A DNA stretch of 60,274 nucleotides from Bacteroidota bacterium (GCA_046050405.1 JBJOPY010000035.1:1-60274); one strand, 5' to 3'. Positions 2,580-55,169 are shown, counted from the first letter of the stretch. A program made the numbers and translations. Notes: generated from the sequence alone by a model not told the origin.

Positions 2580-3932
2580 TTATTCACTGCGGAGGGAAAT
2601 GACGGGATCTTGCTTCGCCGCCTTGAGGGCAGGGAAAAAACCGAAGAACACGCCGACCGAGAATGCCACCAGAAAGGCGAGGATGACCGGGAACCAGGAC
2701 AGCAGTGTAGGGACGTCAAAAAGCTCCCGGATCGCGATGCTGAGCCCGATACCGAATCCCACTCCTGCCAATCCCCCGATGATGCTCAAGGTCACCGACT
2801 CACTCAGGAACTGCAGCACGATGTCCCGCCGCATGGCACCCAGGGCCAAGCGTACACCGATCTCCTTGATCCGTTCCATCACGGACGCAAACATGATGTT
2901 CATGATCCCGATGCCCCCGATTAGCAGCGATATCGCCGCGATGGAGATCAGCACCAGGTTGAACATATCGGTCGTTTGCTGCTTCTGCTCCAGCAACTCC
3001 TCGGGAATCTTGACCTTCGTGTCGATCACCCCGTTGTGCCGGCGTTCCAGCATCCTCCGAATGATCTCTGCGACCTTCACCATGTCATATCCCTTGGCCA
3101 CTGCCACTGTCATGCGGTCAACTTGATGATAGTTGTCGGATTCGGGCGATGGGGCCATGCCCTCATCTTCCCCGTTCCTCATCGAGGGCATCTGTGCCTG
3201 CTGGAGGTCGACGGGTGAAATGCGGTTGCGGTTCCGATATCGCAGCAGCACCGTCTCGATGGGCGCGTAAATGTCAAGATCGTAGTCCCTTACACCCAAG
3301 TCCATGAGATTTGCCTTTGAAAACTTGCGCTCAGCTGCGACACCCACGACCGTCAACCAATTCTTCCCAACCTTGATTTTCTTGCCGATCGGACTCTCCT
3401 GCGCGAAAAATTTGCTTTTGACCCCGGCCCCGATCACGCATACCGTGGCGGCATTCTTAGCCTGGGCGGGAGAGAACCCGGACTCGCCGTGGTCCATTTT
3501 GAAGGATACATGCTGAAAAAACACATTCGTCACTCCCACCAGTTTTCCGCTTCGCTTGCGCCCGCTTCTCATAAATGTCGTTTCCAGCACGATTTCGGGG
3601 CTGACTTTCACCACGGGGGGAATGATCTCCTCGAAACTCTCCGCGTCTGCGACCGTCAACCCTGGCGAGAACTTCTGCGTTGTATTTTCCTTGCCCGTTT
3701 CCTCAGTCACCTCCTCCTCCTTTTGCTGTGAGATTGGCTCGATGATCAGGTTGTTGGCACCCAGGATGTTCATTTGCTCCAGAATCTTCTCCTGCGCCCC
3801 CTGACCGATGGCCATCATCGCGATCACCGCGCCCACCCCGAAAATGATGCCCAGCGAAGTCAGGAAACTCCTCAGCGGCCGCTGGGCAAGCGATTCCAAT
3901 GCCATTTGAAGGTTGTATGTAAGTTTCTGCAT
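2580..3932 (-). CDS. ABC transporter permease, MacB/FtsX-like
   Basis: 450 aa. It has an N-terminal TM helix, a large periplasmic domain and a C-terminal FtsX-type 3-TM bundle (..GGIGIMNIMFASVMERIKEIGVRLALGA..), which is typical MacB-family permease architecture. Confidence 0.85.
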   Translation of the reverse strand: MQKLTYNLQMALESLAQRPLRSFLTSLGIIFGVGAVIAMMAIGQGAQEKILEQMNILGANNLIIEPISQQKEEEVTEETGKENTTQKFSPGLTVADAESFEEIIPPVVKVSPEIVLETTFMRSGRKRSGKLVGVTNVFFQHVSFKMDHGESGFSPAQAKNAATVCVIGAGVKSKFFAQESPIGKKIKVGKNWLTVVGVAAERKFSKANLMDLGVRDYDLDIYAPIETVLLRYRNRNRISPVDLQQAQMPSMRNGEDEGMAPSPESDNYHQVDRMTVAVAKGYDMVKVAEIIRRMLERRHNGVIDTKVKIPEELLEQKQQTTDMFNLVLISIAAISLLIGGIGIMNIMFASVMERIKEIGVRLALGAMRRDIVLQFLSESVTLSIIGGLAGVGFGIGLSIAIRELFDVPTLLSWFPVILAFLVAFSVGVFFGFFPALKAAKQDPVISLRSE

Positions 3933-3942
3933 CAGAGAGGGC

Positions 3943-5214
3943 TCATTGCAAGCGTTTCATTTCCAGCTCATCCGCATCATCGGGCTTGGAGAGGAAAAGT
4001 TCATCCTCCATTTCCACGCCCTTTTCCACAATGACGTAGTTTTCATTTTCCGCGCCGAGCTTCACCTCCTGGCGAATCGTCGATCCGCCTTTTCGCTTGA
4101 AGACATAGGCGATCGAGTCATCCAGTACATGGACGCATTCCAGCGGGATGAAGCGGGCATTCTCAAGGGTGGAAATGATGATTTCATTGCTGGTCGTCAT
4201 CGCAGGTCGCAGCGTACTGTCCCTCTCGTGGATCTTGATCTTCACCTCGAACACCTTGGAATCCGAATTGGGTCGCTGCTCCCCCACATTTGCGACTGAC
4301 GTCACCTCCCCAGTGAGACGCTTGTCCGGATTGGCATCCAGACTGACGCGCACCGATTGTCCGGCCTTGACTTTCTGGATGTCCACCTCATTCACATAGG
4401 TGACCGATTGCATCTTGGTCAAATCCGGAAGCGTCGCCACCGTCGGGTCCCAAGGGCTCACCGTGGACCCCACCACCCGCTTCTTGCCGTCCCATTCGCG
4501 GGCGTAGATCAACATCCCCGGCTCCGGTGCAAGGATCGTGAACTGCGACAGGATCTCCTGGTCCTCTTGAAACCTCTGCTGCTCCTTGAAGAGGTCGGCT
4601 TCTGCTTCGCGCATCTTGGCTGTGGCCTGCTTCACCTTTGTTTCGTAGTTGGCCATGCTCTGGTTGTAGTTGCGCACAGCCTTCTCATACTCGATTTCTG
4701 CCTGCCTCCGGGTGGAGGGCGATTCGTACGTGCTTTCGTCCTTTTCCAGCCTCCTTTGCTCTTTGGCATACCGCAGATTGACCAGTTCGTCACGCGTCTG
4801 CGACAGTGTCAAGGTACAATCGAGTTTTGCCTGCGTCACCATGGACTGGAATTTCTGAAGGTTGATTTCCACCTCCCTGAGCTTGGCAACAATCTCAGAC
4901 TTGTCGAGTTCGGCGACCACATCCCCGGGAGCCACCACTGTGCCTTCAGGGGCAAGCCGTGTGATCTTCAGCTGGAAAATCCCGGCTTTTCGCGCGCCTG
5001 AGGGACCGAGAATGTCGACCGAGTTCTGTGCCTGCAATTCACCGGTCGTCGTGACCACCACCTCAAACTTTCCCTCCTGCGGTCTTTGGAGAACCTCTGC
5101 GGACTTGTCCCCGCCACAGCCCGTCAACACCATGAAAGCCAAGGGAATGATCGTCCGTCCAACCATATTGATTCTCACGCGAGTAGCCATGCCGGTATAG
5201 GTTGATTTTTGCAA
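3943..5214 (-). CDS. Efflux transporter periplasmic adaptor (HlyD/MFP family), probable lipoprotein
   Basis: 423 aa. It has the lipobox-like sequence FMVLTGCGG, long coiled-coil hairpin segments, and barrel-sandwich plus beta-barrel segments typical of membrane fusion proteins. Confidence 0.85.
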   Translation of the reverse strand: MQKSTYTGMATRVRINMVGRTIIPLAFMVLTGCGGDKSAEVLQRPQEGKFEVVVTTTGELQAQNSVDILGPSGARKAGIFQLKITRLAPEGTVVAPGDVVAELDKSEIVAKLREVEINLQKFQSMVTQAKLDCTLTLSQTRDELVNLRYAKEQRRLEKDESTYESPSTRRQAEIEYEKAVRNYNQSMANYETKVKQATAKMREAEADLFKEQQRFQEDQEILSQFTILAPEPGMLIYAREWDGKKRVVGSTVSPWDPTVATLPDLTKMQSVTYVNEVDIQKVKAGQSVRVSLDANPDKRLTGEVTSVANVGEQRPNSDSKVFEVKIKIHERDSTLRPAMTTSNEIIISTLENARFIPLECVHVLDDSIAYVFKRKGGSTIRQEVKLGAENENYVIVEKGVEMEDELFLSKPDDADELEMKRLQ

Positions 5215-5453
5215 CGCTACGAAATTACTAAGGTATTCTTAGCTTTTCAATGACAGGACCGAGCTCCGTGGGAGGAGGGTTTGAGAGCGGAAGGTGCGAT
5301 CAGGTTGGAGCTTTTCAAGACTGGCTCCACCCCTAATCCGGAAAAGCATCGGCTCCTGACCCTTGCACAAGCCTGGAATTGCCTCCGAATCAAGAAATGT
5401 GACAAGAAGATCCCGCCTCAGCCCCCAAGATTCACAACTCTGAAATCCGCGCC

Positions 5454-6368
5454 TTATTGGCGAGGCAGAAAGATCTCCCCCAGCATGCACCTGATGCTAC
5501 CGCCACCCACATTCTCGATCGTCGGGATGGGGAAATGCACCACCTTCGCCCATAGCTCGATGAGATCCAGCTGGCTGTCGCTCAGCGACCTGTAGGCACG
5601 GCTGCTCATGGCCACAAACCGTTCCCTGCCACTGATCTCCAAGACATTCCCTGCGAACTCCTTCAACTGCTCCGGGCGCAGCTTCACGATACGGTGACCT
5701 CCTCCGCCAAGATATGCCATGACGCGCTCCCGCTCGACAGGATCGGGAATGGTGTAATCTGCCAGTACCACATAGTTCGTCCCGATGGAGAGCATCACGT
5801 TCGTATGGTAGATGGGCTTGCCGCTGGAATCCACGGCGTCGAAGACCACCGTACGGTAATTCAAGGTCTTGGCGACCTCCTTCAGAACGGTCTCGTTCGT
5901 TCTGGGCGAACGGCAGGCATATACGACACCATTGGTCCTGTCGAAAACCATCGATCCGGTGCCCTCAAGGTAGCGTCCTGTGTTCTCATGACGGCTTAAG
6001 TCCACCACCCGCCGGATTTCAAAGTACTTCTCGAGATCGTCAAGTACGTCCTGGCGCCTTTCCAGCCGGCGATTCTGAGCCATCATGGGGTAGAGGATCA
6101 CCGTCCCGTCCTCATGTGTCGAAATCCAGTTGTTGGGGAAAATGGCATCCGGACGCACAGGGGAGGGCTTGTCATCCACGACATACAGGTTCACCCCGTT
6201 TGCACGCATCTCTGTCGCGACATTGTCGAACTCCTGCAACGCCCGGGATTGAAGGTCTTCTGCCGCGATGTCGCCCGGATTGTTCTGGAAAGCGTTGTTG
6301 GACGCAGTCTCGGGGTCGTACCCGAAGGCTGCGGGGCGCACCATCAAGATGGAATTCGTTGATTGCAT
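5454..6368 (-). CDS. Amidinotransferase-fold protein (arginine deiminase-related / citrulline utilization hydrolase CtlX-like)
   Basis: The ORF is open to 6527, but the ATG at 6368 (MQSTNSILMVRPAAFGYDPETASNNAFQ) matches the usual N-terminus of this family. The C-terminal GGGSIRCM carries the catalytic Cys motif of guanidino-group-modifying enzymes. Confidence 0.75.
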   Translation of the reverse strand: MQSTNSILMVRPAAFGYDPETASNNAFQNNPGDIAAEDLQSRALQEFDNVATEMRANGVNLYVVDDKPSPVRPDAIFPNNWISTHEDGTVILYPMMAQNRRLERRQDVLDDLEKYFEIRRVVDLSRHENTGRYLEGTGSMVFDRTNGVVYACRSPRTNETVLKEVAKTLNYRTVVFDAVDSSGKPIYHTNVMLSIGTNYVVLADYTIPDPVERERVMAYLGGGGHRIVKLRPEQLKEFAGNVLEISGRERFVAMSSRAYRSLSDSQLDLIELWAKVVHFPIPTIENVGGGSIRCMLGEIFLPRQ

Positions 6369-35082: not shown

Positions 35083-35828
35083 ACGTCGTCGTGGATATCG
35101 GCAACAGCCGCGTGAAAGTGGGCTATTTTGAGGGGCGGAGGTTGGTCGATGCCACGGTGCACCTCCATGAGGATTATCCCCGGGAAGTCTTGGAATCCGC
35201 CCCATGGCAGGCTTATTCCCCCCGTGCAGAATATCTCGGCCTCGCCCACGTGGGGAATGATGCGCTGTACAGGGCCACCCTCCACCTGCGGTCGATCCAG
35301 CCCGGGCTTCAGCTTCGCGCCATTGACCAGCATACACCGACACCCTTCGGGAACCGGTATCAAACGCCGGGCTCCCTGGGCATGGATCGGATTTGCGCCA
35401 CGGTCGCGGGTTTCGAGCGTGCCGGGACAGGCCCCGTCCTCGTCATCAATGCGGGAACCGCATTGACCTTCGACTATGTGGACGAGGCGAACGACTACCT
35501 GGGTGGAGCCATATCCCCGGGATTGCAAACCCGCTTCAGGGCATTGCACGACTATACGGCGGCACTTCCGCTGCTGTCCCTGGAGGGCAGGCTCCAGTGG
35601 GTGGGAGACTCCACGGACACCTGCATCCGCTCCGGCGTGGTACATGGGATGGTGCTGGAGATGGAAGGCTTCATCACCCGTTATGCCCGGCTTTCCCGCA
35701 AGCCTCTCCAAGTTTACTTGACCGGGGGCGATGCTGGGTTTTTGGGAAATCATGTGAAAAACATCACCTTTGTCGATTCAAATTTGGTGCTGTACGGCAT
35801 CAATACCCTTATCATTGATCATGCATAG
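35079..35828 (+). CDS. coaX: Type III pantothenate kinase
   Basis: 249 aa. The GTG start overlaps the birA stop. It has the motifs VVDIGNSRVK, GMDR and INAGTALTFD. Confidence 0.9.
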   Translation: MNVVVDIGNSRVKVGYFEGRRLVDATVHLHEDYPREVLESAPWQAYSPRAEYLGLAHVGNDALYRATLHLRSIQPGLQLRAIDQHTPTPFGNRYQTPGSLGMDRICATVAGFERAGTGPVLVINAGTALTFDYVDEANDYLGGAISPGLQTRFRALHDYTAALPLLSLEGRLQWVGDSTDTCIRSGVVHGMVLEMEGFITRYARLSRKPLQVYLTGGDAGFLGNHVKNITFVDSNLVLYGINTLIIDHA

Positions 35829-37512
35829 AAGAATTGCGCTGCTCTCATTCTCCCTTTGCTGGATGGCAATGGCAGCCCATTCGCAGATTGTCGTCTCTCC
35901 GTACTCGCATTACGGCATCGGAGACATCTTCAGCACCTGCGGTGCGCGCAGTTTCGGAATGGGACGCATCGGCATAGGGGCATACGATCAGGCATCGATC
36001 AATCGGCTGAACCCCGCTTCTTACGCGGACCTGCGATTGACGACATTCGACTTCAACGGCTTTGTAACCTATGGCAGCCATAACAGCAGCCGCAACCAGC
36101 AGTCAGTGGGTACCGCAGGGTTCCACAATGTGCAGCTGGGCTTCAGCAACCGCAAGGGCTTCGCCATCGTGGCTGGAATCGCACCCTACTCCACCCTGGG
36201 TTATGAGGTGCGCGTGCGTGACTCTGTGCTGGCCGACACCACCTACAAGCCTTATACCGCCATCTATTCCTCCAGCGGCGGCCTGAATCAGCTTTACCTG
36301 GGATTTGGCGTCCGCTTCCTGAAACGGGTGCAGGCAGGCATCAACCTTCAGTATGCCTTCGGGACCAACCAATTCCAATACGATACCGACTTCGACGATG
36401 GAAGCATCTCTACAGGGTCATCCCTGAAGACCCTGCAATTGAAGGGAACCTCCCCGCAGCTCGGGCTGCAATACGGAGACACTATCGAGATCAAGACACA
36501 GGTTCCAAGGTCCAGGGAGATCAGGCGCCAGGTCGAAGAGCTGGAAAACGAGCAGGAAGACCTGGTATCGGAGGCAGAGGAACTGAATAAAGGGGGAGCC
36601 AAGCTGGATGGCTGGGAGGCTGGGAAGCAAGCCAAGATCGAGGCCCTGGACAAGGAAAGGAGCGTCCTGGAAGCAGCGGTGAAGGATCTGATGACCGACG
36701 AGCGCAAAAATGCGAAGGAAATCGGCAATCTCCAGGACAAGATCTACCGGCATGACAAGATGAAAAACAAGCTCTCCAGGGAAGTCAAAGCACGCCGCAA
36801 GGAAAACACCGAAGCCATCGCCAAAACCGCTGTCAGACTGGATCGGGTCGCCCAGCGCATCGCCACGCTGGAAAAGGAGGGGAAAGAGATTGAGGCAGGC
36901 AGAAAGGAATCGGTCGTTACCAAGACACAGCGATATCTGGTGCGCCTAGGCACGACCTATGATGCCGGATTTGGGTTGAGGGGCACGCAGCTCTTCCGCT
37001 ATTCCAACACTGGAATTCAAGATACGCTCACCACCGACACAGGCCTCGTGAGGCTTCCCATGAAGCTTGGATTCGGACTTTCAATTTCCAAGCCCAACAA
37101 ATGGATGCTCGGTGCGGATGTCAGCCTGCAGGATTGGAGCAAGTTCAGCCTCTTCGGCCAGACGAGCACCTTGCACAGTGCCATCGGGTTCAATGTCGGT
37201 GGCGAATGGATTCCCGAACTCACCTCGAACAGGTTTGCACGCAAGACGGCCTATCGCATCGGCGGTTTCTACAATGCCTCTTTCCTTACGCTGTACGGGA
37301 ATCCAATCAAGGAAATCGGCATCACCGCCGGCATCGGTTTGCCGATCGGTGTTTACAATCCAGTCGGCCAAAGCCACTCCCGGATCAATCTGGGCGTCAA
37401 CCTCAGCCGGAAGGGAACCCTGGAGGACAACCTGCTCCGCGAGTTGGCCATCCAATTCAGGCTTGGCGTGAATCTGAATGACATCTGGTTCATCAAGCGG
37501 CGGATCGATTAG
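35821..37512 (+). CDS. Putative outer-membrane beta-barrel protein with a long internal coiled-coil insertion
   Basis: The ATG at 35821 overlaps the coaX stop by 8 nt. The signal peptide is MHRRIALLSFSLCWMAMAAHSQ. The N- and C-terminal thirds show alternating aromatic/glycine beta-strand patterns, and the protein ends in ..LGVNLNDIWFIKRRID. The centre is highly charged heptad-like sequence. Confidence 0.7.
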   Translation: MHRRIALLSFSLCWMAMAAHSQIVVSPYSHYGIGDIFSTCGARSFGMGRIGIGAYDQASINRLNPASYADLRLTTFDFNGFVTYGSHNSSRNQQSVGTAGFHNVQLGFSNRKGFAIVAGIAPYSTLGYEVRVRDSVLADTTYKPYTAIYSSSGGLNQLYLGFGVRFLKRVQAGINLQYAFGTNQFQYDTDFDDGSISTGSSLKTLQLKGTSPQLGLQYGDTIEIKTQVPRSREIRRQVEELENEQEDLVSEAEELNKGGAKLDGWEAGKQAKIEALDKERSVLEAAVKDLMTDERKNAKEIGNLQDKIYRHDKMKNKLSREVKARRKENTEAIAKTAVRLDRVAQRIATLEKEGKEIEAGRKESVVTKTQRYLVRLGTTYDAGFGLRGTQLFRYSNTGIQDTLTTDTGLVRLPMKLGFGLSISKPNKWMLGADVSLQDWSKFSLFGQTSTLHSAIGFNVGGEWIPELTSNRFARKTAYRIGGFYNASFLTLYGNPIKEIGITAGIGLPIGVYNPVGQSHSRINLGVNLSRKGTLEDNLLRELAIQFRLGVNLNDIWFIKRRID

Positions 37513-37560
37513 GAGCGTTCAGGGGGCGGCAACTGATCCCACAACCCTGTATTTTTGTGC

Positions 37561-38838
37561 ATGGCCATGAATTTTCCTTGGGGAGGCTGGGGCAGGCTGC
37601 TCATCTGTTGCAGCCTGGCGTTTCCCATGGCCGGCATGGCCCAGACAAATGTCTCCGCATTGCTTACAGGCATCGAGTCCGCAACGGACCGCTCTCAGGC
37701 ACAGAACCTGCTGAATCAACTTTGGCTGCTGGACAGCACGAAAACGTACCTTCAGGCGGAGACCATCCAGCGCCACTGGGAGGAATCCGGAGGCGGCATC
37801 ACCCGAACCCAAGCCGATACCTTGATGCGCATTTACGCAATCGGGTGCAAGCATGATCCTCACGGATCCGGAAAATGGCTGCTGCTGCGCGCACGGCTGG
37901 CCCTCAGCCAGCCCGATCTCCATCCAAGGCAGACCCTCGGCCTGATGATGGAGGCCATCGCGCTAGCACCGCGCGAGACCCCGCCTTTCCTGTACACTGA
38001 GGCTGGTCATCTCCTCGCCAGAGAATACAAGTCCATTAACCTGTCCCTGAATGCCGCAGCAAAAGATTGGGTCACGCTGGACCGGGCACTCCTGGAACGC
38101 AAGGTCAGCGATCCGCAAGGGGCTGCGGAATGGGCAAGGATCCAGGAGCAGCTCACCCTGGAAATGCGGTCATGTTTTCCGGATTGCAGACAGCTTCAGG
38201 GGGATTTCTCCGAAGCGATCGGCCAAGGCAATCTTCCGCCCGATGCTTGTGAAACCTTTCTGGTGATTTGCAGCCTGCAAGGCTGCGATGAGTCCCAGGC
38301 ATGGGAAGAGGCCCTGCAGTGTGCCTTGAAAGCAGGCGAAAATCCTTGGCTGCATCGTCTGGCAGGAGCCGAAGCGTTCAACCGTGGGCAGATTGCACGC
38401 AGCAGGACGCATTGGCAAAAAGCCTGCAGCCTGGAGGTCGCGCTGCCACTCCAGGCCAGCGACCAGTTGCAGATCGCGGCGACCTACCAGCAGGAGAAGG
38501 ACTTTCGCGAAGCCCGGTCATGCATTCAGGCTGCGATGGACAGGCAGCCGGGCTGGGGAGTACCGTACCTGCAGCTGATGGACCTCTACCTGGCCGGAAG
38601 CGAGACATGCAAAATGTCGGCTTTTGAGCGCAAAGCCCTCCATTGGCTGCTGATCGATCTTTGCCTGAAGCTCAGTGCGATCGATGAAAGCTGTTCCATG
38701 GAAGCAAATCAACGCTACTATGCCTATCTGAAAGCATGCCCGACGAAAGAGGAGGCGGCTTTCTACGGATGGAAGGCGGGTGATACCTATCCCCTGAAGT
38801 GCTGGATGAGTACCGCGACTACAGTTCGCCTTCCCTAG
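37561..38838 (+). CDS. Hypothetical secreted helical-repeat protein
   Basis: The ATG at 37561 gives a signal-like N-terminus (MAMNFPWGGWGRLLICCSLAFPMAGMAQ). The protein is helix-rich and Leu/Ala/Gln-rich (TPR-like impression). I recognise no family. Confidence 0.6.
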   Translation: MAMNFPWGGWGRLLICCSLAFPMAGMAQTNVSALLTGIESATDRSQAQNLLNQLWLLDSTKTYLQAETIQRHWEESGGGITRTQADTLMRIYAIGCKHDPHGSGKWLLLRARLALSQPDLHPRQTLGLMMEAIALAPRETPPFLYTEAGHLLAREYKSINLSLNAAAKDWVTLDRALLERKVSDPQGAAEWARIQEQLTLEMRSCFPDCRQLQGDFSEAIGQGNLPPDACETFLVICSLQGCDESQAWEEALQCALKAGENPWLHRLAGAEAFNRGQIARSRTHWQKACSLEVALPLQASDQLQIAATYQQEKDFREARSCIQAAMDRQPGWGVPYLQLMDLYLAGSETCKMSAFERKALHWLLIDLCLKLSAIDESCSMEANQRYYAYLKACPTKEEAAFYGWKAGDTYPLKCWMSTATTVRLP

Positions 38839-41761: not shown

Positions 41762-42256
41762 ATGAAATCCAAGTCTTTGATATTGTTCCTGTTTTCCGCT
41801 TGTGCCGTGATTTTCTGGGCTCAAGGGTGTGACCGATGCAAGGAGCATGGCACGCTGACGCTCTCAGAAACCACGCAGTTTTTCGAGGCAACATACTTGG
41901 TGGATTCCAATGGTGCCAACTATACCAGTATCTGGCACCCGGATAGTGTAACAGTCCAGCTGAGCACCAATGGATTTGAAGGCTCCTTTGACTCAATTTC
42001 CGAAGACCTCTCCGATGGCAAGATCGGCCCCTGGGCCTTTACCGTAACACCCCAGGCCGCTAAGATGGGTTCCATCTACCATTACGTGTATGTCGTCACC
42101 AAGGACAGGTTCGGAGCCGATACCTTCGAGATCAAATTCTATCCGTCAATGGACGAATGCCACGAATACTGGGGAAGGCTTGAATACTGGAAGGACGGTG
42201 TTCTCATTTCAACTTGCGATGGAAAGGAAACGTGCTCCATTGTGATTCGCGAATGA
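41762..42256 (+). CDS. Hypothetical Cys-rich lipoprotein
   Basis: 164 aa. It has a signal peptide with a lipobox-like sequence (LFLFSAC). There are seven further Cys in the mature part (CDRC, DECH, STCDGKETC). I recognise no family. Confidence 0.65.
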   Translation: MKSKSLILFLFSACAVIFWAQGCDRCKEHGTLTLSETTQFFEATYLVDSNGANYTSIWHPDSVTVQLSTNGFEGSFDSISEDLSDGKIGPWAFTVTPQAAKMGSIYHYVYVVTKDRFGADTFEIKFYPSMDECHEYWGRLEYWKDGVLISTCDGKETCSIVIRE

Positions 42257-42374: not shown

Positions 42375-42393
42375 TCCCGCCGGAAACGCGGGA
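42375..42393 (+). terminator. Weak hairpin between the lipoprotein gene and the repeat-protein ORF
   Basis: The sequence is TCCCGC-cggaaac-GCGGGA followed by AAATTTG. The stem is only 6 bp and the T-tract is poor, so its function is uncertain. Confidence 0.2.
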
Positions 42394-42503
42394 AAATTTG
42401 CTTGGATGGAGAGAACTCCTTATTTTGTACCTAGGTAGGCGGCCTGCCGCATTTAATTATCAAGACGGTTTTAAGATATACCCTCATTTGCCTCCTTTTC
42501 GCA

Positions 42504-44354
42504 GTGGCACTGGCAGTTCCGAAAGAGCCTTCGGCACAGCGGATCGACGCATCAACCCGCCAAAGACCCCGTATCTTCGTACCCCAAAACCGCAACAGCC
42601 GCCTGCACCGCGCAAACAGATTCAGAGACAAAGAACAACGCTTCTTTCAATACCGTCAGCGCAATTTCGCACGTACGCATCGTGACCTCAACCAGAAGCG
42701 TGCCCGAGCGCAGCATTACACGCGGCATCGCTCGGTGAACCAGCACTCCCTGGATCGGAAGAGCATCCGGCAGGCTCCCGGTCGCCGATCCCACGCCAGG
42801 CTCAGCACCAAGCGAAGGCCGCAATCGGCTGACCGCCCACACCATCCAAGCACAAGCACGAAATCCAGGCGGCAGCAAGCTGACTCGCCCTCCCACCGCA
42901 GTGTCAGCCGAGTCACGCAGAAGAATCCCGGAAACGGCAGACGCAGCCATCAGAACCTGAACAATCGATCCCCAACACCACAGGCAAGCCGGATCACGCA
43001 CCGAAGCCTGGGCCGCCTCAACCAGCGGAGACCGGCTCGCCTGTCCCACGGAAGCCTCAATCGCTACCGGCCGCCCTCGGTTGCCAGCAGGCACCAATCC
43101 CTGAACCAAAGCCGACAACCTGGAGTGAATGCGCGGCACAGGAACCTGAACAGCAATCATCCACCTTCGGTTGCCGCTCGTCACCGACCCCTTCATCGGC
43201 AACGGCAACAAGTCGCCAACGCCAGCCACCGAAATCTGAACAGGTTCCACCTGCCCCATGTCGCGACCCGCCACCAGTATCTCAATCAAAAGCGCCAGTA
43301 CGTGGCAAACGCCACCCACAGGTCGCTCAATCTCAAGCGGTCTCCGCTGATGCAGGCACAGCATCGGAACCTGAACAGGCATCCTCCCCTGGTCGGGGTG
43401 AGACACAAGGGCATGAACCAGTACGACCCATTTGGAAGGTTGGCACAGAAGCAGCTACGCGACGATCAGAGGAAGCTCAATGTCACAGGACTGAACAGTG
43501 CCTGTTACCCGCGCATCAGGATCCGACACAGGGATCTTACCCAAGTCTGCTACCCGAGGGTCCAAGTGAATCACAAGGATCTTTCCTCGAATTGCTATCC
43601 GAAAATGCGCGTCAAGCACATGGATCTTCAATCGAAGTGTTATCCGACCCCCAATGTTCGCCACAGGAACCTCTCCTCTGCATGCCTGCCGAGGTATGCA
43701 GTGACCCACAAGAGCCTGAACACAGTTTGTTACAAGCCGGCTGTGCGGATCACACACCAGGACCTTTCCCTGAAATGCTATCCTACAATGGTGATCAAGC
43801 ACAAGGACATGGCAGGCCTCTCCTGTACTGAGATACGCATTCGCCATGCGGACTTGAACAAGGCCAGGATCGCCTGTGACCCCAACATCCGCGACCACTC
43901 CACCGCCATGGAGAGAATCGGCAAGGAGATCAAGTTCCAATTCACACGGCATCGCCTTTTCTGCAAGCTGGAATGCAGGTATAGTGGCGTCTCCCAGGGA
44001 AATATCGTAGAAACCTCGAAGGGTCTGGCCGTGGTCAAAGACTATATTGTCAGGAAGGGAACCTACTACCCGATTCGTCTCATCGTGTCCACGATACAGG
44101 GGTTGGGACGAAACGAGAGGGGAGAAGCCAAGCTGGTCATGCACAAGCTCACCAAAGAGGAGACGAAAGAAATCATGATTCGCGAGCTGATCAAGCGACA
44201 GAAATACCTCTGGCTCGTGCGAATGTATCCCGAGGAACGCAAAAATCTCGAAAGCCTGAAGCTGCTCTACAGAAATCCCAACGGGTCTCCAGACAAGGAT
44301 CCCAATGCGCCCAGTGATCTTCCGACCCCCATCAGGGATTCGGACCATAACTGA
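42504..44354 (+). CDS. Hypothetical, extremely basic tandem-repeat protein (about 25 x ~15-residue H-x-x-L-N units plus a C-terminal globular domain)
   Basis: It is a single 616-codon ORF with a GTG start; the first ATG is codon 283. Third codon positions are GC-rich in this frame, unlike the mirrored minus-strand frame. Repeat lengths vary (14-22 aa) but never break frame. The C-terminal ~150 aa have ordinary globular composition. Confidence 0.6.
   Translation: MALAVPKEPSAQRIDASTRQRPRIFVPQNRNSRLHRANRFRDKEQRFFQYRQRNFARTHRDLNQKRARAQHYTRHRSVNQHSLDRKSIRQAPGRRSHARLSTKRRPQSADRPHHPSTSTKSRRQQADSPSHRSVSRVTQKNPGNGRRSHQNLNNRSPTPQASRITHRSLGRLNQRRPARLSHGSLNRYRPPSVASRHQSLNQSRQPGVNARHRNLNSNHPPSVAARHRPLHRQRQQVANASHRNLNRFHLPHVATRHQYLNQKRQYVANATHRSLNLKRSPLMQAQHRNLNRHPPLVGVRHKGMNQYDPFGRLAQKQLRDDQRKLNVTGLNSACYPRIRIRHRDLTQVCYPRVQVNHKDLSSNCYPKMRVKHMDLQSKCYPTPNVRHRNLSSACLPRYAVTHKSLNTVCYKPAVRITHQDLSLKCYPTMVIKHKDMAGLSCTEIRIRHADLNKARIACDPNIRDHSTAMERIGKEIKFQFTRHRLFCKLECRYSGVSQGNIVETSKGLAVVKDYIVRKGTYYPIRLIVSTIQGLGRNERGEAKLVMHKLTKEETKEIMIRELIKRQKYLWLVRMYPEERKNLESLKLLYRNPNGSPDKDPNAPSDLPTPIRDSDHN
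42678..43895 (+). repeat. Degenerate tandem array with ~45-nt period inside the 42504-44354 ORF
   Basis: A recurrent core CAYNRNAAYCTGAAC-like motif occurs at, for example, 43137 CACAGGAACCTGAAC, 43227 CACCGAAATCTGAAC and 43362 CATCGGAACCTGAAC. The motif His codons fall at residues 59, 75, 97, 113, 131, 149, 166, 182, 197, 212, 227, 242, 257, 272, 287, 301, 342, 357, 372, 387, 402, 418, 433 and 448. Confidence 0.8.
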
Positions 44355-53445: not shown

Positions 53446-53670
53446 ATGGATAATCAATCTAAGCCTGGGTTCACTGCCTACTTCAGGCTGGTCATGAGTA
53501 CATTCTTCATCGCGGGAGCCATGGGCATCCTGGCCGGGATTGCCGACAATGACTACATCCGTCCAGACAACAGGTGGCTGTTCGCGATACCCGTTTTGCT
53601 GTATGGCCTGTTTCGCCTCTACCTGGCCATCAGGATGCTGCGGGGCAAGAGCGACACCTTCAATTACTGA
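53446..53670 (+). CDS. Hypothetical small two-TM membrane protein
   Basis: 74 aa with two clear hydrophobic helices (VMSTFFIAGAMGILAGI and WLFAIPVLLYGLFRLYLAI) and a basic C-terminus. Confidence 0.5.
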   Translation: MDNQSKPGFTAYFRLVMSTFFIAGAMGILAGIADNDYIRPDNRWLFAIPVLLYGLFRLYLAIRMLRGKSDTFNY

Positions 53671-53678
53671 GGTCGCCG

Positions 53679-55169
53679 ATGCGCCTATGCCCACTCGACC
53701 CTCAGCGACCCGGCACAGGGCTCTGCCTTGCAATGGCTGCATTGCTTCAATGGCAAGCCCTTTTTTCCCAAACAGTGGTCGCCCGGCTTGACCTGGACCG
53801 GCGCAGCCCACAGCCTTCCCTCGTCGAGTATGTCGCCGCTGACGGAGGGATCGTCACCTTGGGGAATCAAACCAGCAAATCCAGCCGATACCTCTGCATC
53901 AACAAGTACGACGATCAATTCTCGAAATCATGGACGAGGCAAGTGCTCCAGCAAAACGGGCAGAACGGCATCGACATGATGACTGTGCTCGGGGAAAACA
54001 TCTACGTATTCGACTCGGAGTATTTCCCGCGTGATCGCACCATCCGGACCAGCTATACCCGCTTCGACCTGGGCGGTAATGTGGTCGTGCCGCGAAAGGA
54101 AATCGCGAACCTCCCCAACGAAGAGAAGCACCGCGTGGACCTGAAGTATGTGCACTCGATCAACAAGAAGAAACTGCTCTGCTACAAAAACCTGGAGGAA
54201 GACGGCAAGTTCGAGACCATCCTCTACTACCTCTTCGATGCCAACACCAGCGAAATGGTCACTGGCAAGATCCAGATTCCCTACCTGGACGACAAGTTCC
54301 AGGTTCGCAAGATCATGGTGAGCAATGCCGGAAAAATCTACGTCCTTGGCAAGTACTTCAAGGTCAACAGGGTAAAGACTCCGGATGATTTCGGATTCAA
54401 GATCTACCAATACGAACCCGGCAGTCCCGAAGCCCATGAGGCATCGATCGACCTTGGCGAGCTGTACATCACCGACCTGACCCTCAAGATCGACAGGGAT
54501 GAGAATCTTTTCCTCGCCGGGTTCTACTCACACCAAAGCGCAAACCAGATCATCGGAACCTGCTTTTTCAAGTTCAACGGCGACCTCAAAGAAGAGGTGC
54601 GCAGTTCCCAGCACTTCTCGGAGGATTTCCTGGCCAACTTTCTGCGGGACAGGCAGATCGAAAAAGGGCATGAATTACAGAATTTCTACCTCGACAACAT
54701 CATCCTGCGCTCCGACGGGGGCGTCTTGCTCATCGCTGAGAAATTTTACACGACTTTCAATTCTTATGTGGACATCTACGGCTACTGGGTGGACCAGAAG
54801 ATTTTCCACTATGACGAGATCATTGTGAATTCGGTCGCTGCGACGGGCGACCTGGAATGGAGTGCCGTGGTGCCCAAGCAGCAGCAATCCAGCCAGCGTG
54901 GCCACCTGAGCTATGTGGAAGTGGTCAGCGGCACCAACCTCTACCTGGTCTACGGCCATCAGATCGGGAAGACCCCCCAAACAGTGTACGTGAACAATGT
55001 GGACTTTGATGGAAAGGTTGCCGACCGCAAGGCACTCCTTCCCGGAGCGGGGCATGATGAAACCTTCTATCCCCAGTACTCCGAACAGATCAGCAACAGC
55101 ACCGCTCTGATCGTCTATTTTCAGGACCGGGAGAAGTTATTCTCGATGGTGAAGGTGGCCTTTGATTAG
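53679..55169 (+). CDS. Hypothetical protein (beta-rich, conserved-hypothetical look)
   Basis: The long ORF has ordinary composition. The ATG at 53679 avoids overlap with the preceding small gene. The weak signal-like N-terminus is MRLCPLDPQRPGTGLCLAMAALLQWQALFSQ. I recognise no family. Confidence 0.65.
   Translation: MRLCPLDPQRPGTGLCLAMAALLQWQALFSQTVVARLDLDRRSPQPSLVEYVAADGGIVTLGNQTSKSSRYLCINKYDDQFSKSWTRQVLQQNGQNGIDMMTVLGENIYVFDSEYFPRDRTIRTSYTRFDLGGNVVVPRKEIANLPNEEKHRVDLKYVHSINKKKLLCYKNLEEDGKFETILYYLFDANTSEMVTGKIQIPYLDDKFQVRKIMVSNAGKIYVLGKYFKVNRVKTPDDFGFKIYQYEPGSPEAHEASIDLGELYITDLTLKIDRDENLFLAGFYSHQSANQIIGTCFFKFNGDLKEEVRSSQHFSEDFLANFLRDRQIEKGHELQNFYLDNIILRSDGGVLLIAEKFYTTFNSYVDIYGYWVDQKIFHYDEIIVNSVAATGDLEWSAVVPKQQQSSQRGHLSYVEVVSGTNLYLVYGHQIGKTPQTVYVNNVDFDGKVADRKALLPGAGHDETFYPQYSEQISNSTALIVYFQDREKLFSMVKVAFD

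Follow-up and report, generated by a model that had tools for sequence, protein, structure and literature searches.

TonB and TolA are envelope proteins with a small conserved alpha/beta domain at the C-terminus that follows a highly charged, Pro-containing repeat whose length varies, while AlgP and the histone H1-like KPAA proteins carry a very basic short-period array thought to bind a polyanion, and the curli and Fap subunits are exported through the general secretory (Sec) pathway. In the secretion system known as type IX (T9SS), PorU attaches cargo to anionic lipopolysaccharide (LPS), the acceptor of the PorU sortase (PMC10202324). Here we describe a gene which invites comparison with all of these, located on a 60,274-nt stretch of DNA from a Bacteroidota bacterium (GCA_046050405.1, JBJOPY010000035.1:1-60274; hereafter, the window), and encoding an extremely basic protein built largely from degenerate 15-residue units that begin with His. 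It represents a rare Bacteroidota protein family and a repeat type, which are new at the family and fold level only. We consider it highly probable that the gene, its family and the export of its product, taken jointly, are read correctly; what the protein does in the cell can be proposed much more tentatively.

A plus-strand gene behind antisense gene calls

The plus-strand frame at 42504..44354 is open over 616 amino acids (aa) from a GTG, which is its first canonical start codon, in agreement with the first-pass annotation of the window made from its sequence alone. The locus is a single plus-strand gene, the start of which we place farther upstream, at ATC 42459, giving 631 codons. Its parts and immediate surroundings are as follows (residues of the open reading frame, ORF, are counted from GTG 42504).

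41762..42256, plus strand: small lipoprotein-like gene, 164 aa, with a signal peptide and a G-C lipobox-like site
42375..42400, plus strand: conserved intergenic hairpin (42375-42393), then GAAAA(T/C)TTTG
42459..42461, plus strand: proposed non-canonical start codon ATC (AUC), its position conserved across 10 loci
42459..42536, plus strand: putative signal peptide (M/I)KTVLRYTLICLLFAVALAVPKEPSA, cleavage being predicted ahead of Gln 42537-42539
42537..42677, plus strand: basic segment at the N-terminal end of the mature protein, QRIDASTRQRPRIF...RQRNFART, which aligns across orthologues
42678..43448, plus strand: array A, about 15 Cys-free units, ORF residues 59-315
43449..43502, plus strand: linker KQLRDDQRKLNVTGLNSA, conserved as ..LAxKQxR..K..LN.A in family alignment A3
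43503..43886, plus strand: array B, nine Cys/His units, ORF residues 334-461
43878..44285, plus strand: predicted C-terminal alpha/beta domain, with a helix at its N-terminal end, a small barrel of four strands and a further four helices
44286..44354, plus strand: Pro/Asn/Asp-rich C-terminal tail and stop codon, with low predicted local distance difference test (pLDDT) scores; sequence variable, end always N/D-rich
42552..43406 and 43455..44348, minus strand (span 42552..44348): two antisense shadow ORFs in the same frame, the codon-aligned reverse complement of the plus frame; not genes

Orthologues in metagenome-assembled genomes (MAGs) of uncultured Bacteroidota/Bacteroidia keep the plus frame uninterrupted over 700-836 codons. 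In the seven full-length genes that were compared (the window gene and six orthologues), this frame does not contain a single stop, versus 3-11 stops in the codon-aligned antisense frame, and mismatches between the window gene and its orthologues are most frequent at codon position 3 of the plus strand; within array A, the mismatch rate is 0.53-0.63 at this position and 0.33-0.43 at positions 1 and 2. Segment-by-segment estimation by the Nei-Gojobori method puts the proportion of nonsynonymous differences (pN) well below that of synonymous differences (pS) throughout the gene: pN is about 0.3 versus a pS of 0.66-0.8 in array A, 0.15 versus 0.8 in array B, and 0.33-0.39 versus 0.57-0.63 in the signal-peptide segment (comparisons with loci L003-L005), and it drops to 0.07 in the C-terminal domain. 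Among L003-L005, the ratio of the corresponding rates (dN/dS) lies at 0.12-0.2 in array A, and the remainder of the gene has 0.02-0.05. The GC content at third codon positions is 0.70 in all three parts of the gene, equal to that of the neighbouring genes. Because orthologues keep the frame open and substitutions concentrate at third codon positions, the array is, on this comparative evidence, protein-coding and under purifying selection. The first-pass annotation had argued for selection at the protein level as opposed to a non-coding DNA repeat, and the dN/dS below 1, the third-position peak of mismatches and the negative search for DNA tandem repeats described below all agree with it, as does the intact frame of the orthologous loci, in which differences in length amount to whole units. 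The distal ATG at 43908 (MERIGKE), to which it also pointed, lies where it had been placed.

Public gene calls present the locus differently. On contig L021, two protein segments of which were sampled and are 100% identical to those of the window, the JGI annotation places a minus-strand gene of 276 aa (3765..4595) over the array and a plus-strand gene of 188 aa (5001..5567) over the last 188 codons only; these calls map to approximately 42552-43382 and 43788-44354 of the window. If they were taken at face value, a minus-strand gene would cover the array and plus-strand coding would be confined to those last 188 codons. Apart from the calls themselves, everything speaks against this reading, which is practically impossible: the minus frame is broken in each of the seven genes and the plus frame in none, the substitutions that peak at plus position 3 fall on minus position 1, and homologous plus-strand proteins match across the array down to E=1e-120. 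An antisense gene is thus ruled out by the stops and the third-position mismatches, and scans of the antisense ORFs against Pfam, NCBIfam and PHROGs yielded nothing usable.

Two classes of 15-residue repeats

The repeat region is made up of about 24 units, each anchored on the motif H-x-x-(L/V/M/I/F)-polar. They begin at ORF residues 59, 75, 97, 131, 149, 166, 182, 197, 212, 227, 242, 257, 272, 287, 301, 342, 357, 372, 387, 402, 418 (a double unit, the second part of which begins at 433) and 448, so that successive spacings are 16, 22, 34, 18, 17, 16, 15 (seven times), 14, 41, 15 (four times), 16, 15 and 15, with 15 dominant. Residue identity is 0.207 at lag 15 and again at lag 30, versus approximately 0.04-0.11 at other lags, and His-His spacings of 14-16 residues occur 14 times, versus a mean of 2.4 and a maximum of 11 in 20,000 shuffles. 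The 15-residue periodicity is far beyond chance. The composition is as basic as initially noted, with R, K and H making up 33% of the first 100 residues and D and E 6%; over the whole region following the signal peptide, the net charge (K+R-D-E) is +87 and the isoelectric point (pI) is 11.5.

The units fall into two classes: the Cys-free units of array A, which vary in copy number, and the Cys/His units of array B, fixed at nine by comparison of family members. The first-pass annotation had described about 25 degenerate H-x-x-L-N repeats of 15 residues; its count and period hold, and all of the example units that it quoted were found, but the single repeat class that it assumed has to be divided in two.

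The family consensus of array A, derived from 85 units, is H-R-N-L-N-R-Y-R-Q-R-V-A-x-A-R. In the window protein this array has a net charge of +49, a pI of 12 and a grand average of hydropathy of -1.53. Among relatives, the number of its units ranges from about 4 to about 39, 45-nt units having been gained and lost in frame. Tandem Repeats Finder (TRF) detects no DNA tandem repeat in the window array, in which short DNA words alone recur at multiples of 45 nt; the repeat is therefore old, and it is at the protein level that it is maintained. In orthologue arrays, on the other hand, young DNA repeats with periods of 45, 90 and 135 nt are found in L004 (6903-7325) and L009 (6563-6897 and 7372-7461), with 69-85% matches over all rows, the long ones being free of indels (0%) and the three shortest rows having 2-4%. 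In some lineages, therefore, the array continues to grow by whole units, while the copy in the window has diverged.

Array B follows the consensus H-K-D-L-S-S-K-C-Y-P-R-x-K-V-K, and in the 11 sequences aligned most of its units have invariant Cys, Tyr, Pro, His, Asp and Leu, with every unit retaining a signature of its own, position by position. Past the signal peptide, the Cys count of most orthologues is exactly 10, of which nine fall in array B and one in the motif FCKLE. A strict rule of Cys parity was considered and rejected, as distant members have between 8 and 17 Cys in total when those of the signal peptide are counted, and several of them have an odd number. We also considered the Bacteroidetes O-glycosylation motif, D-(S/T)-hydrophobic, and discarded it, since the units read D-L-S/N instead. 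The presence of a variable-copy array beside a fixed one in the same protein offers a clean natural system for studying the evolution of repeat proteins.

Proposed gene start and signal peptide

The in-frame stop codon upstream of the array is TAG 42432-42434. Between this stop and GTG 42504 the frame contains IKTVLRYTLICLLFA, which reads ..IIKTVLRYTLICLLFA; running on into VALAVPKEPSAQ, the latter forms a canonical n-h-c signal peptide ending in SA↓Q (the arrow marks the cleavage site). Its layout, read by eye from the sequence, is (I/M)KTVLRY - TLICLLFAVALAV - PKEPSA↓Q. In Bacteroidetes, substrates of signal peptidase I follow a Q-rule, with Gln at position +1 (PMC5837995), and the signal peptide has the corresponding layout: its basic n-region leads into a hydrophobic h-region of 10-15 residues, the residue at -1 is small and that at +1 is Gln. 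This layout recurs in 10 orthologues. The segment conserved among orthologues comprises I-K-x-x-x-K-Y, the hydrophobic core and then ..A↓Q, and distant members of the family have an ordinary ATG followed by a signal peptide ending in (A/G)Q. There is no lipobox in the repeat protein itself. The conserved in-frame signal peptide therefore makes it most likely that the protein is exported, and correspondingly unlikely that it is a cytoplasmic scaffold for DNA, RNA or polyphosphate. The statement of the first-pass annotation that there is no signal peptide holds only if translation begins at GTG 42504; binding of a polyanion, which it had suggested, is still plausible, albeit relocated to the cell envelope.

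Translation of the signal peptide would require a non-canonical start. In all 10 loci that were compared in this respect (the window, L003-L006, L008-L010, L023 and L024), the conserved Lys/Arg of the K/R-Y motif is preceded, at a distance of exactly five codons, by an ATC or ATT codon, and in 7 of the 10 no ATG, GTG or TTG occurs between the upstream in-frame stop and this codon. In L005, ATC is the sole start-like codon ahead of the signal peptide; in the window, the only ones are ATT 42456, ATC 42459 and CTG 42444. From these alignments we infer that translation starts at ATC 42459. Non-canonical initiation is known in infC and pcnB, and, if the AUC/AUU start is true, it would be a rare conserved case outside these two genes.

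Farther upstream, the window hairpin TCCCGC..GCGGGA is followed by AAAATTTG, and in L003-L005 a stem CCACAT..ATGTGG is followed by AAAACTTTG. Thus, the stem changes from CCCGC/GCGGG to CCACAT/ATGTGG with pairing and the AAAAyTTTG box retained. The hairpin and box may represent a -7 promoter box of the Bacteroidetes type or a regulatory element. The region also harbours a short upstream ORF (uORF) on the plus strand, 42406-42438, which begins with ATG, encodes MERTPYFVPR, and ends 18 nt before ATT 42456 and 20 nt before ATC 42459. In 7 of the 9 other loci, too, there are short uORFs, which terminate 30-51 nt ahead of the K/R-Y codons and show no conservation of length or sequence. A few residues past the signal peptide, many family members have a C-x-G-P-x-C motif, such as CKGPGC or CTGPEC (P0001, P0004, P0006, P0008, P0010, P0021, P0024, P0026, P0031 and P0037); the window protein lacks it, and its aligned stretch is QKNPGNG.

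A C-terminal domain with a predicted novel fold

Structure prediction with AlphaFold was performed on the full-length protein with 6 sequences and on a trimmed version with a 51-sequence alignment. The full-length model has a mean pLDDT of 47; its arrays are unmodelled and a Foldseek search with it was uninformative. It contains a single long helix at residues 47-102 (pLDDT 66-81), leading from the basic N-terminal segment into the first repeat units. pLDDT is about 33 in array A and about 45-55 in array B, which stays unresolved even with 51 sequences, and the solenoid proposed in the first-pass annotation finds no AlphaFold support in either array. Its expectation that the last ~150 residues form a globular domain fared better, with pLDDT exceeding 90 over most of ORF residues ~500-590. 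In the trimmed model, the C-terminal domain (residues ~150-285) scores 83-97 in most 10-residue blocks, with two dips to 58 and 76, and its secondary structure consists of helices at 159-171 and 242-280 and strands at 192-195, 198-206, 216-227 and 233-239. The helices carry ETKEIMIRELIKR..WLVRMYPEER, within the motif ETKEIMIRELIKRxKxxWLVRMYPEER.

Foldseek found nothing in PDB at E<0.1; the best matches (E=0.14, TM <0.5) are SH3-like small barrels, among them CAP-Gly, Cren7, eIF5A/EF-P and Tudor domains. In BFVD there was nothing below E=0.009, the value for an unnamed protein. As modelled, the C-terminal part is a folded domain with a novel fold.

Family membership and database searches

The first homology search with the window protein returned five family matches, with E-values from 1e-71 to 1e-120. 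Orthologues occur at nine genome loci in the MAGs and on further contigs. An exhaustive HMMER search of 1.84 billion representatives yielded 61 proteins at E<=1e-3 and 48 at E<=1e-10; the 61 include at least one spurious repeat match (P0019). In JGI metagenomes, profile A1 detected only 3 loci, and IMG/VR contains no relative.

That the protein matches no known family, as had been noted at first sight, is in line with every collection searched. No Pfam-A family matches the full protein at E<=1, none consistently matches the 51 family members at E<=0.1, and no member has an informative name. The sole match in NCBIfam, which includes models of the T9SS components PorU, V, P, Z and Q, is recR at E=0.075 (12.5 bits versus a cut-off of 162), and the sole match in PHROGs, at E=0.019, has no named function. 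Sequence profile searches of PDB (profiles A1, A4 and A2) gave best E-values of 0.038-1, i.e. at chance level: designed protein 4D2, the top match overall (E=0.038), a tau repeat construct, a helix of eS4 (E=1) and PSE-4. The stretches concerned are ORF residues ~357-400, which share words with tau repeats, and ~560-580, which resemble the eS4 helix ETKAIMMQRLVK; both likenesses are taken as chance. Rfam gave no match over the whole window, and our literature searches found no description of the repeat-protein family.

Two further identities were rejected. The protein is not T9SS cargo, as it has neither Por_Secre_tail (PF18962/TIGR04183) nor CHU_C (PF13585/TIGR04131) and ends in a barrel and helices followed by a disordered tail. 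Nor is it a phage or mobile-element protein, given the absence of IMG/VR relatives and significant PHROG matches and the housekeeping neighbours described below. The present description thus adds a family and repeat type described in no database and corrects a public gene call which hides that family behind an antisense ORF. Such mis-calling may be common: a search with the adjacent lipoprotein-like protein gave 40 partners versus 5 family proteins in the first search with the window protein, which suggests that the repeat gene may often be mis-called.

Neighbouring genes

In all 14 close loci with the upstream flank covered, the window included, a gene for the small lipoprotein-like protein lies directly upstream on the same strand (tblastn). 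Its homologues are 28-64% identical to the window protein, with Cys23, Cys26, Cys133 and a D-E-C motif invariant. The N-terminus reads MKSKSLILFLFSACAVIFWAQG↓C, and the Gly-Cys pair is invariant in three aligned homologues. All 40 homologues are annotated as 'hypothetical' and constitute an uncharacterised family of their own, for which we found no match in Pfam or PDB.

The distant family members are without this neighbour. In two lineages (L017 and L027), the gene follows porU and porV on one strand, in the order porU-porV-[gene], with PorU 39% and PorV 56% identical between the lineages. PorP/SprF adjoins the family gene divergently in L019, a PKD/CHU_C cargo gene lies upstream in L018, and a Por_Secre_tail protein is encoded downstream in L012. 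In the subfamily of P0006 and P0008, two genes downstream are conserved at both loci (L017 7481-9872, L018 3520-6004), one for a subtilisin-like S8 peptidase and the other for a protein of 247 aa that has no Pfam domain.

The window as a whole is housekeeping chromosome, with glutamine synthetase III, DXS, NAD kinase and an MltD-like SLT/LysM protein. Three other ORFs in it, all on the plus strand, have no Pfam match at E<=1e-5: 35770-37512 (580 aa), 37555-38838 (427 aa) and 53574-55169 (531 aa). The first two lie upstream of the MltD-like gene, and L024 encodes products of at least 563 aa (cut by the end of the locus) and 428 aa in the same position.

Possible function

The explanation that we favour, although we hold it tentatively, is that the protein is an exported envelope polycation with a docking core. 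After export through Sec and cleavage by signal peptidase I, it would stay in the cell envelope. Array B and the C-terminal domain would constitute the conserved core, with array B probably stapled by five disulfides formed from the ten conserved Cys. This core may dock to a partner, which in the window clade would be the upstream lipoprotein and in other lineages possibly the PorU/PorV attachment machinery. Array A would then act as a disordered arm of expandable length and a charge of about +50, binding an anionic envelope polymer multivalently. Anionic LPS would be its most plausible target, with peptidoglycan, acidic exopolysaccharide or extracellular DNA as alternatives. The invariant His of each unit could provide pH-tunable charge or hydrogen bonding to phosphate or carboxylate groups. 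The mechanism of polyanion binding in particular is a somewhat more doubtful part of this proposal. Should either envelope polyanion binding or the T9SS link prove true, it would offer a new handle on the organisation of anionic LPS and surface cargo in Bacteroidota.

Several observations weigh against an envelope polycation of this kind. The signal peptide depends on a predicted non-canonical AUC start. His is far preferred over Arg at the unit anchor, which hints at a role more specific than charge, and a defined fold or a metal site could also explain how strictly array B is conserved; the His-over-Arg preference and the rigid array B are the observations that the favoured model explains least well. 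The window protein itself has 11 Cys after the signal peptide, the eleventh at a non-conserved site. The genomic context is not conserved family-wide: a TetR gene lies upstream in L014, the neighbours in L016 and L020 are unrelated, and neither porU nor porV occurs within the 60-kb window. In addition, given the great number of T9SS cargo genes in Bacteroidota, adjacency to one of them is weak evidence.

The anchor and Cys residues could instead belong to a periplasmic metal-binding or metal-buffering protein, in which the periodic His of both arrays and the Cys of array B ligate Zn, Cu, Ni or Fe and metal is needed for the arrays to fold. His occupies the anchor of 307 of 360 units (85%) and Arg that of 19 (5%); an invariant Cys and an invariant His, one of each per unit, recur through array B with C-x7-H-x6-C spacing; metal-dependent folds are beyond AlphaFold, which could explain the low pLDDT of the arrays; and one distant member sits between a gene for a TonB-dependent-receptor-like protein and one for a DtxR/FeoA-type repressor. 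Still, we regard this as rather unlikely. Known His-rich metal binders do not look like this protein, with its single His per 15 residues in an Arg-rich and acid-poor setting; clusters of Met, Asp or Glu are absent, and disulfides are the better match for 10 Cys, an even number that is conserved in an exported protein; moreover, L006 swaps the anchor His for Arg in several of its units, and the metal-related neighbourhood is found in one lineage only.

No more probable is the possibility that the protein is a dedicated accessory of the T9SS attachment complex, which would work with PorU and PorV, e.g. by presenting anionic LPS or holding cargo, and would not bind envelope polyanions in general. 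It draws on the porU-porV-[gene] arrangement, shared by two lineages in spite of the divergence of their PorU and PorV, on the neighbouring PorP/SprF, CHU_C and Por_Secre_tail genes in L019, L018 and L012, respectively, and on the service of anionic LPS in cargo attachment (PMC10202324). Against it, the gene is not near any T9SS component in the window clade, and the porU-porV association accounts for only 2 of ~9 independent neighbourhoods; the family, with its 61 representatives, is very rare relative to the spread of T9SS, and no NCBIfam model of a T9SS component matched.

Slightly less probable again is a structural repeat polymer, with units stacked into a beta-solenoid or a cross-beta fibre, Leu inside and Asn forming ladders, in the manner of a functional amyloid or of a sheath or matrix protein. 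The very regular 15-residue period with its conserved Leu and Asn/Asp would suit such a structure, array A is N/Q-rich in a Sec-exported protein, as in curli and Fap subunits, and the alternation (R/K)-h-(R/K)-h-(R/K)-H in array B is compatible with a beta-strand. However, the pLDDT is 33-48 and neither array has predicted strands even when 51 sequences are used, stacking would be strongly opposed by the net charge of +87 unless a counter-polyanion is present, and Pro is frequent within the units of array A. The protein matches neither Curlin nor any other repeat family, and there are no dedicated secretion or nucleator genes nearby.

A cytoplasmic nucleic-acid or polyphosphate scaffold beginning at GTG 42504 and devoid of a signal peptide, as the first-pass annotation had it, is very improbable. 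This GTG is the first canonical start, and the R, H, N, Q, Y and S composition resembles that of nucleic-acid binders, but purifying selection acts on the conserved hydrophobic stretch that precedes it in frame, the ATG and signal peptide of distant members are unambiguous, and ten conserved Cys are typical of exported proteins.

We give hardly any credence to a polyprotein precursor cut into cationic antimicrobial-like peptides of 15 residues, including disulfide-looped units of array B. Cys-bounded loops of 14-15 residues in array B would recall beta-hairpin antimicrobial peptides; the units are cationic and amphipathic, M16 peptidase genes adjoin the gene pair in L001, L002 and L009, and L002 also has a C39-ABC exporter. 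Yet the units are not separated by conserved processing sites, the C-terminal domain and not the units is the most conserved part, the peptidase neighbours are absent from the window and most loci, and the units of array B are individually conserved, unlike interchangeable core peptides.

In its most far-reaching form, our proposal would define a new class of Bacteroidota envelope proteins, in which a nine-unit Cys/His module stapled by disulfides or metal, together with a new alpha/beta domain, is docked to outer-membrane machinery, in some lineages PorU/PorV and in others a dedicated lipoprotein, a polycationic, His-periodic arm of tunable length captures anionic LPS or some other acidic polymer of the surface, and a conserved AUC/AUU start throttles the synthesis of a potentially toxic polycation; that all of this should prove correct seems improbable.

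Comparison with known systems

Among proteins with comparable repeats, the beta-helical antifreeze protein of the spruce budworm also has 15 residues per coil and Cys in its repeats. It is built on T-x-T faces and small residues in its core, as opposed to the Arg/Lys-rich, Pro-containing units described here, for which no such helix is predicted. With the microtubule-binding repeats of tau, the best natural-protein match in PDB (E=0.049), array B shares a local word, KDLxSKC....(I/V)KH. The domain E-value of 2.1 is not significant, the period of tau is 31-32, and tau belongs to another kingdom and cell compartment; we therefore treat kinship with tau repeats as chance, in view of the E-value and the different period.

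If neighbouring Cys pair with each other, the units of array B would form cationic amphipathic loops of 14-15 residues, reminiscent of LPS-binding peptides such as the loop of Limulus anti-LPS factor, arenicin and thanatin. There is no sequence relationship to these peptides, and the present units occur as nine in tandem within a 600-residue bacterial protein that also has a folded domain. Curli CsgA and Fap share with the repeat protein Sec export and imperfect tandem repeats with conserved Asn/Gln positions. Their period is 19-23 or longer rather than 15, while the protein described here has its high positive charge, no match to Curlin_rpt, no csgBEFG or fap genes, and no beta structure in the AlphaFold models of its arrays.

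The likeness to AlgP and the H1-like KPAA proteins lies in the very basic array of short period. Those proteins are cytoplasmic DNA binders composed of Lys, Pro and Ala, without His, Cys or a signal peptide, whereas the units of the present protein are anchored on His and the protein is probably exported. With TonB and TolA, it would share residence in the envelope and the order of a charged, Pro-containing repeat of variable length and a small conserved C-terminal alpha/beta domain. It differs from them in having a cleavable signal peptide in place of an N-terminal membrane anchor, 15-residue His/Arg/Asn units in place of (E/K)P, a C-terminal domain that matches neither TonB_C nor TolA, and a neighbourhood free of ExbBD and TolQR. 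By analogy, in its presumed function the protein most resembles these charged-linker envelope proteins, TonB and TolA, and the basic repeat polyanion binders exemplified by AlgP.

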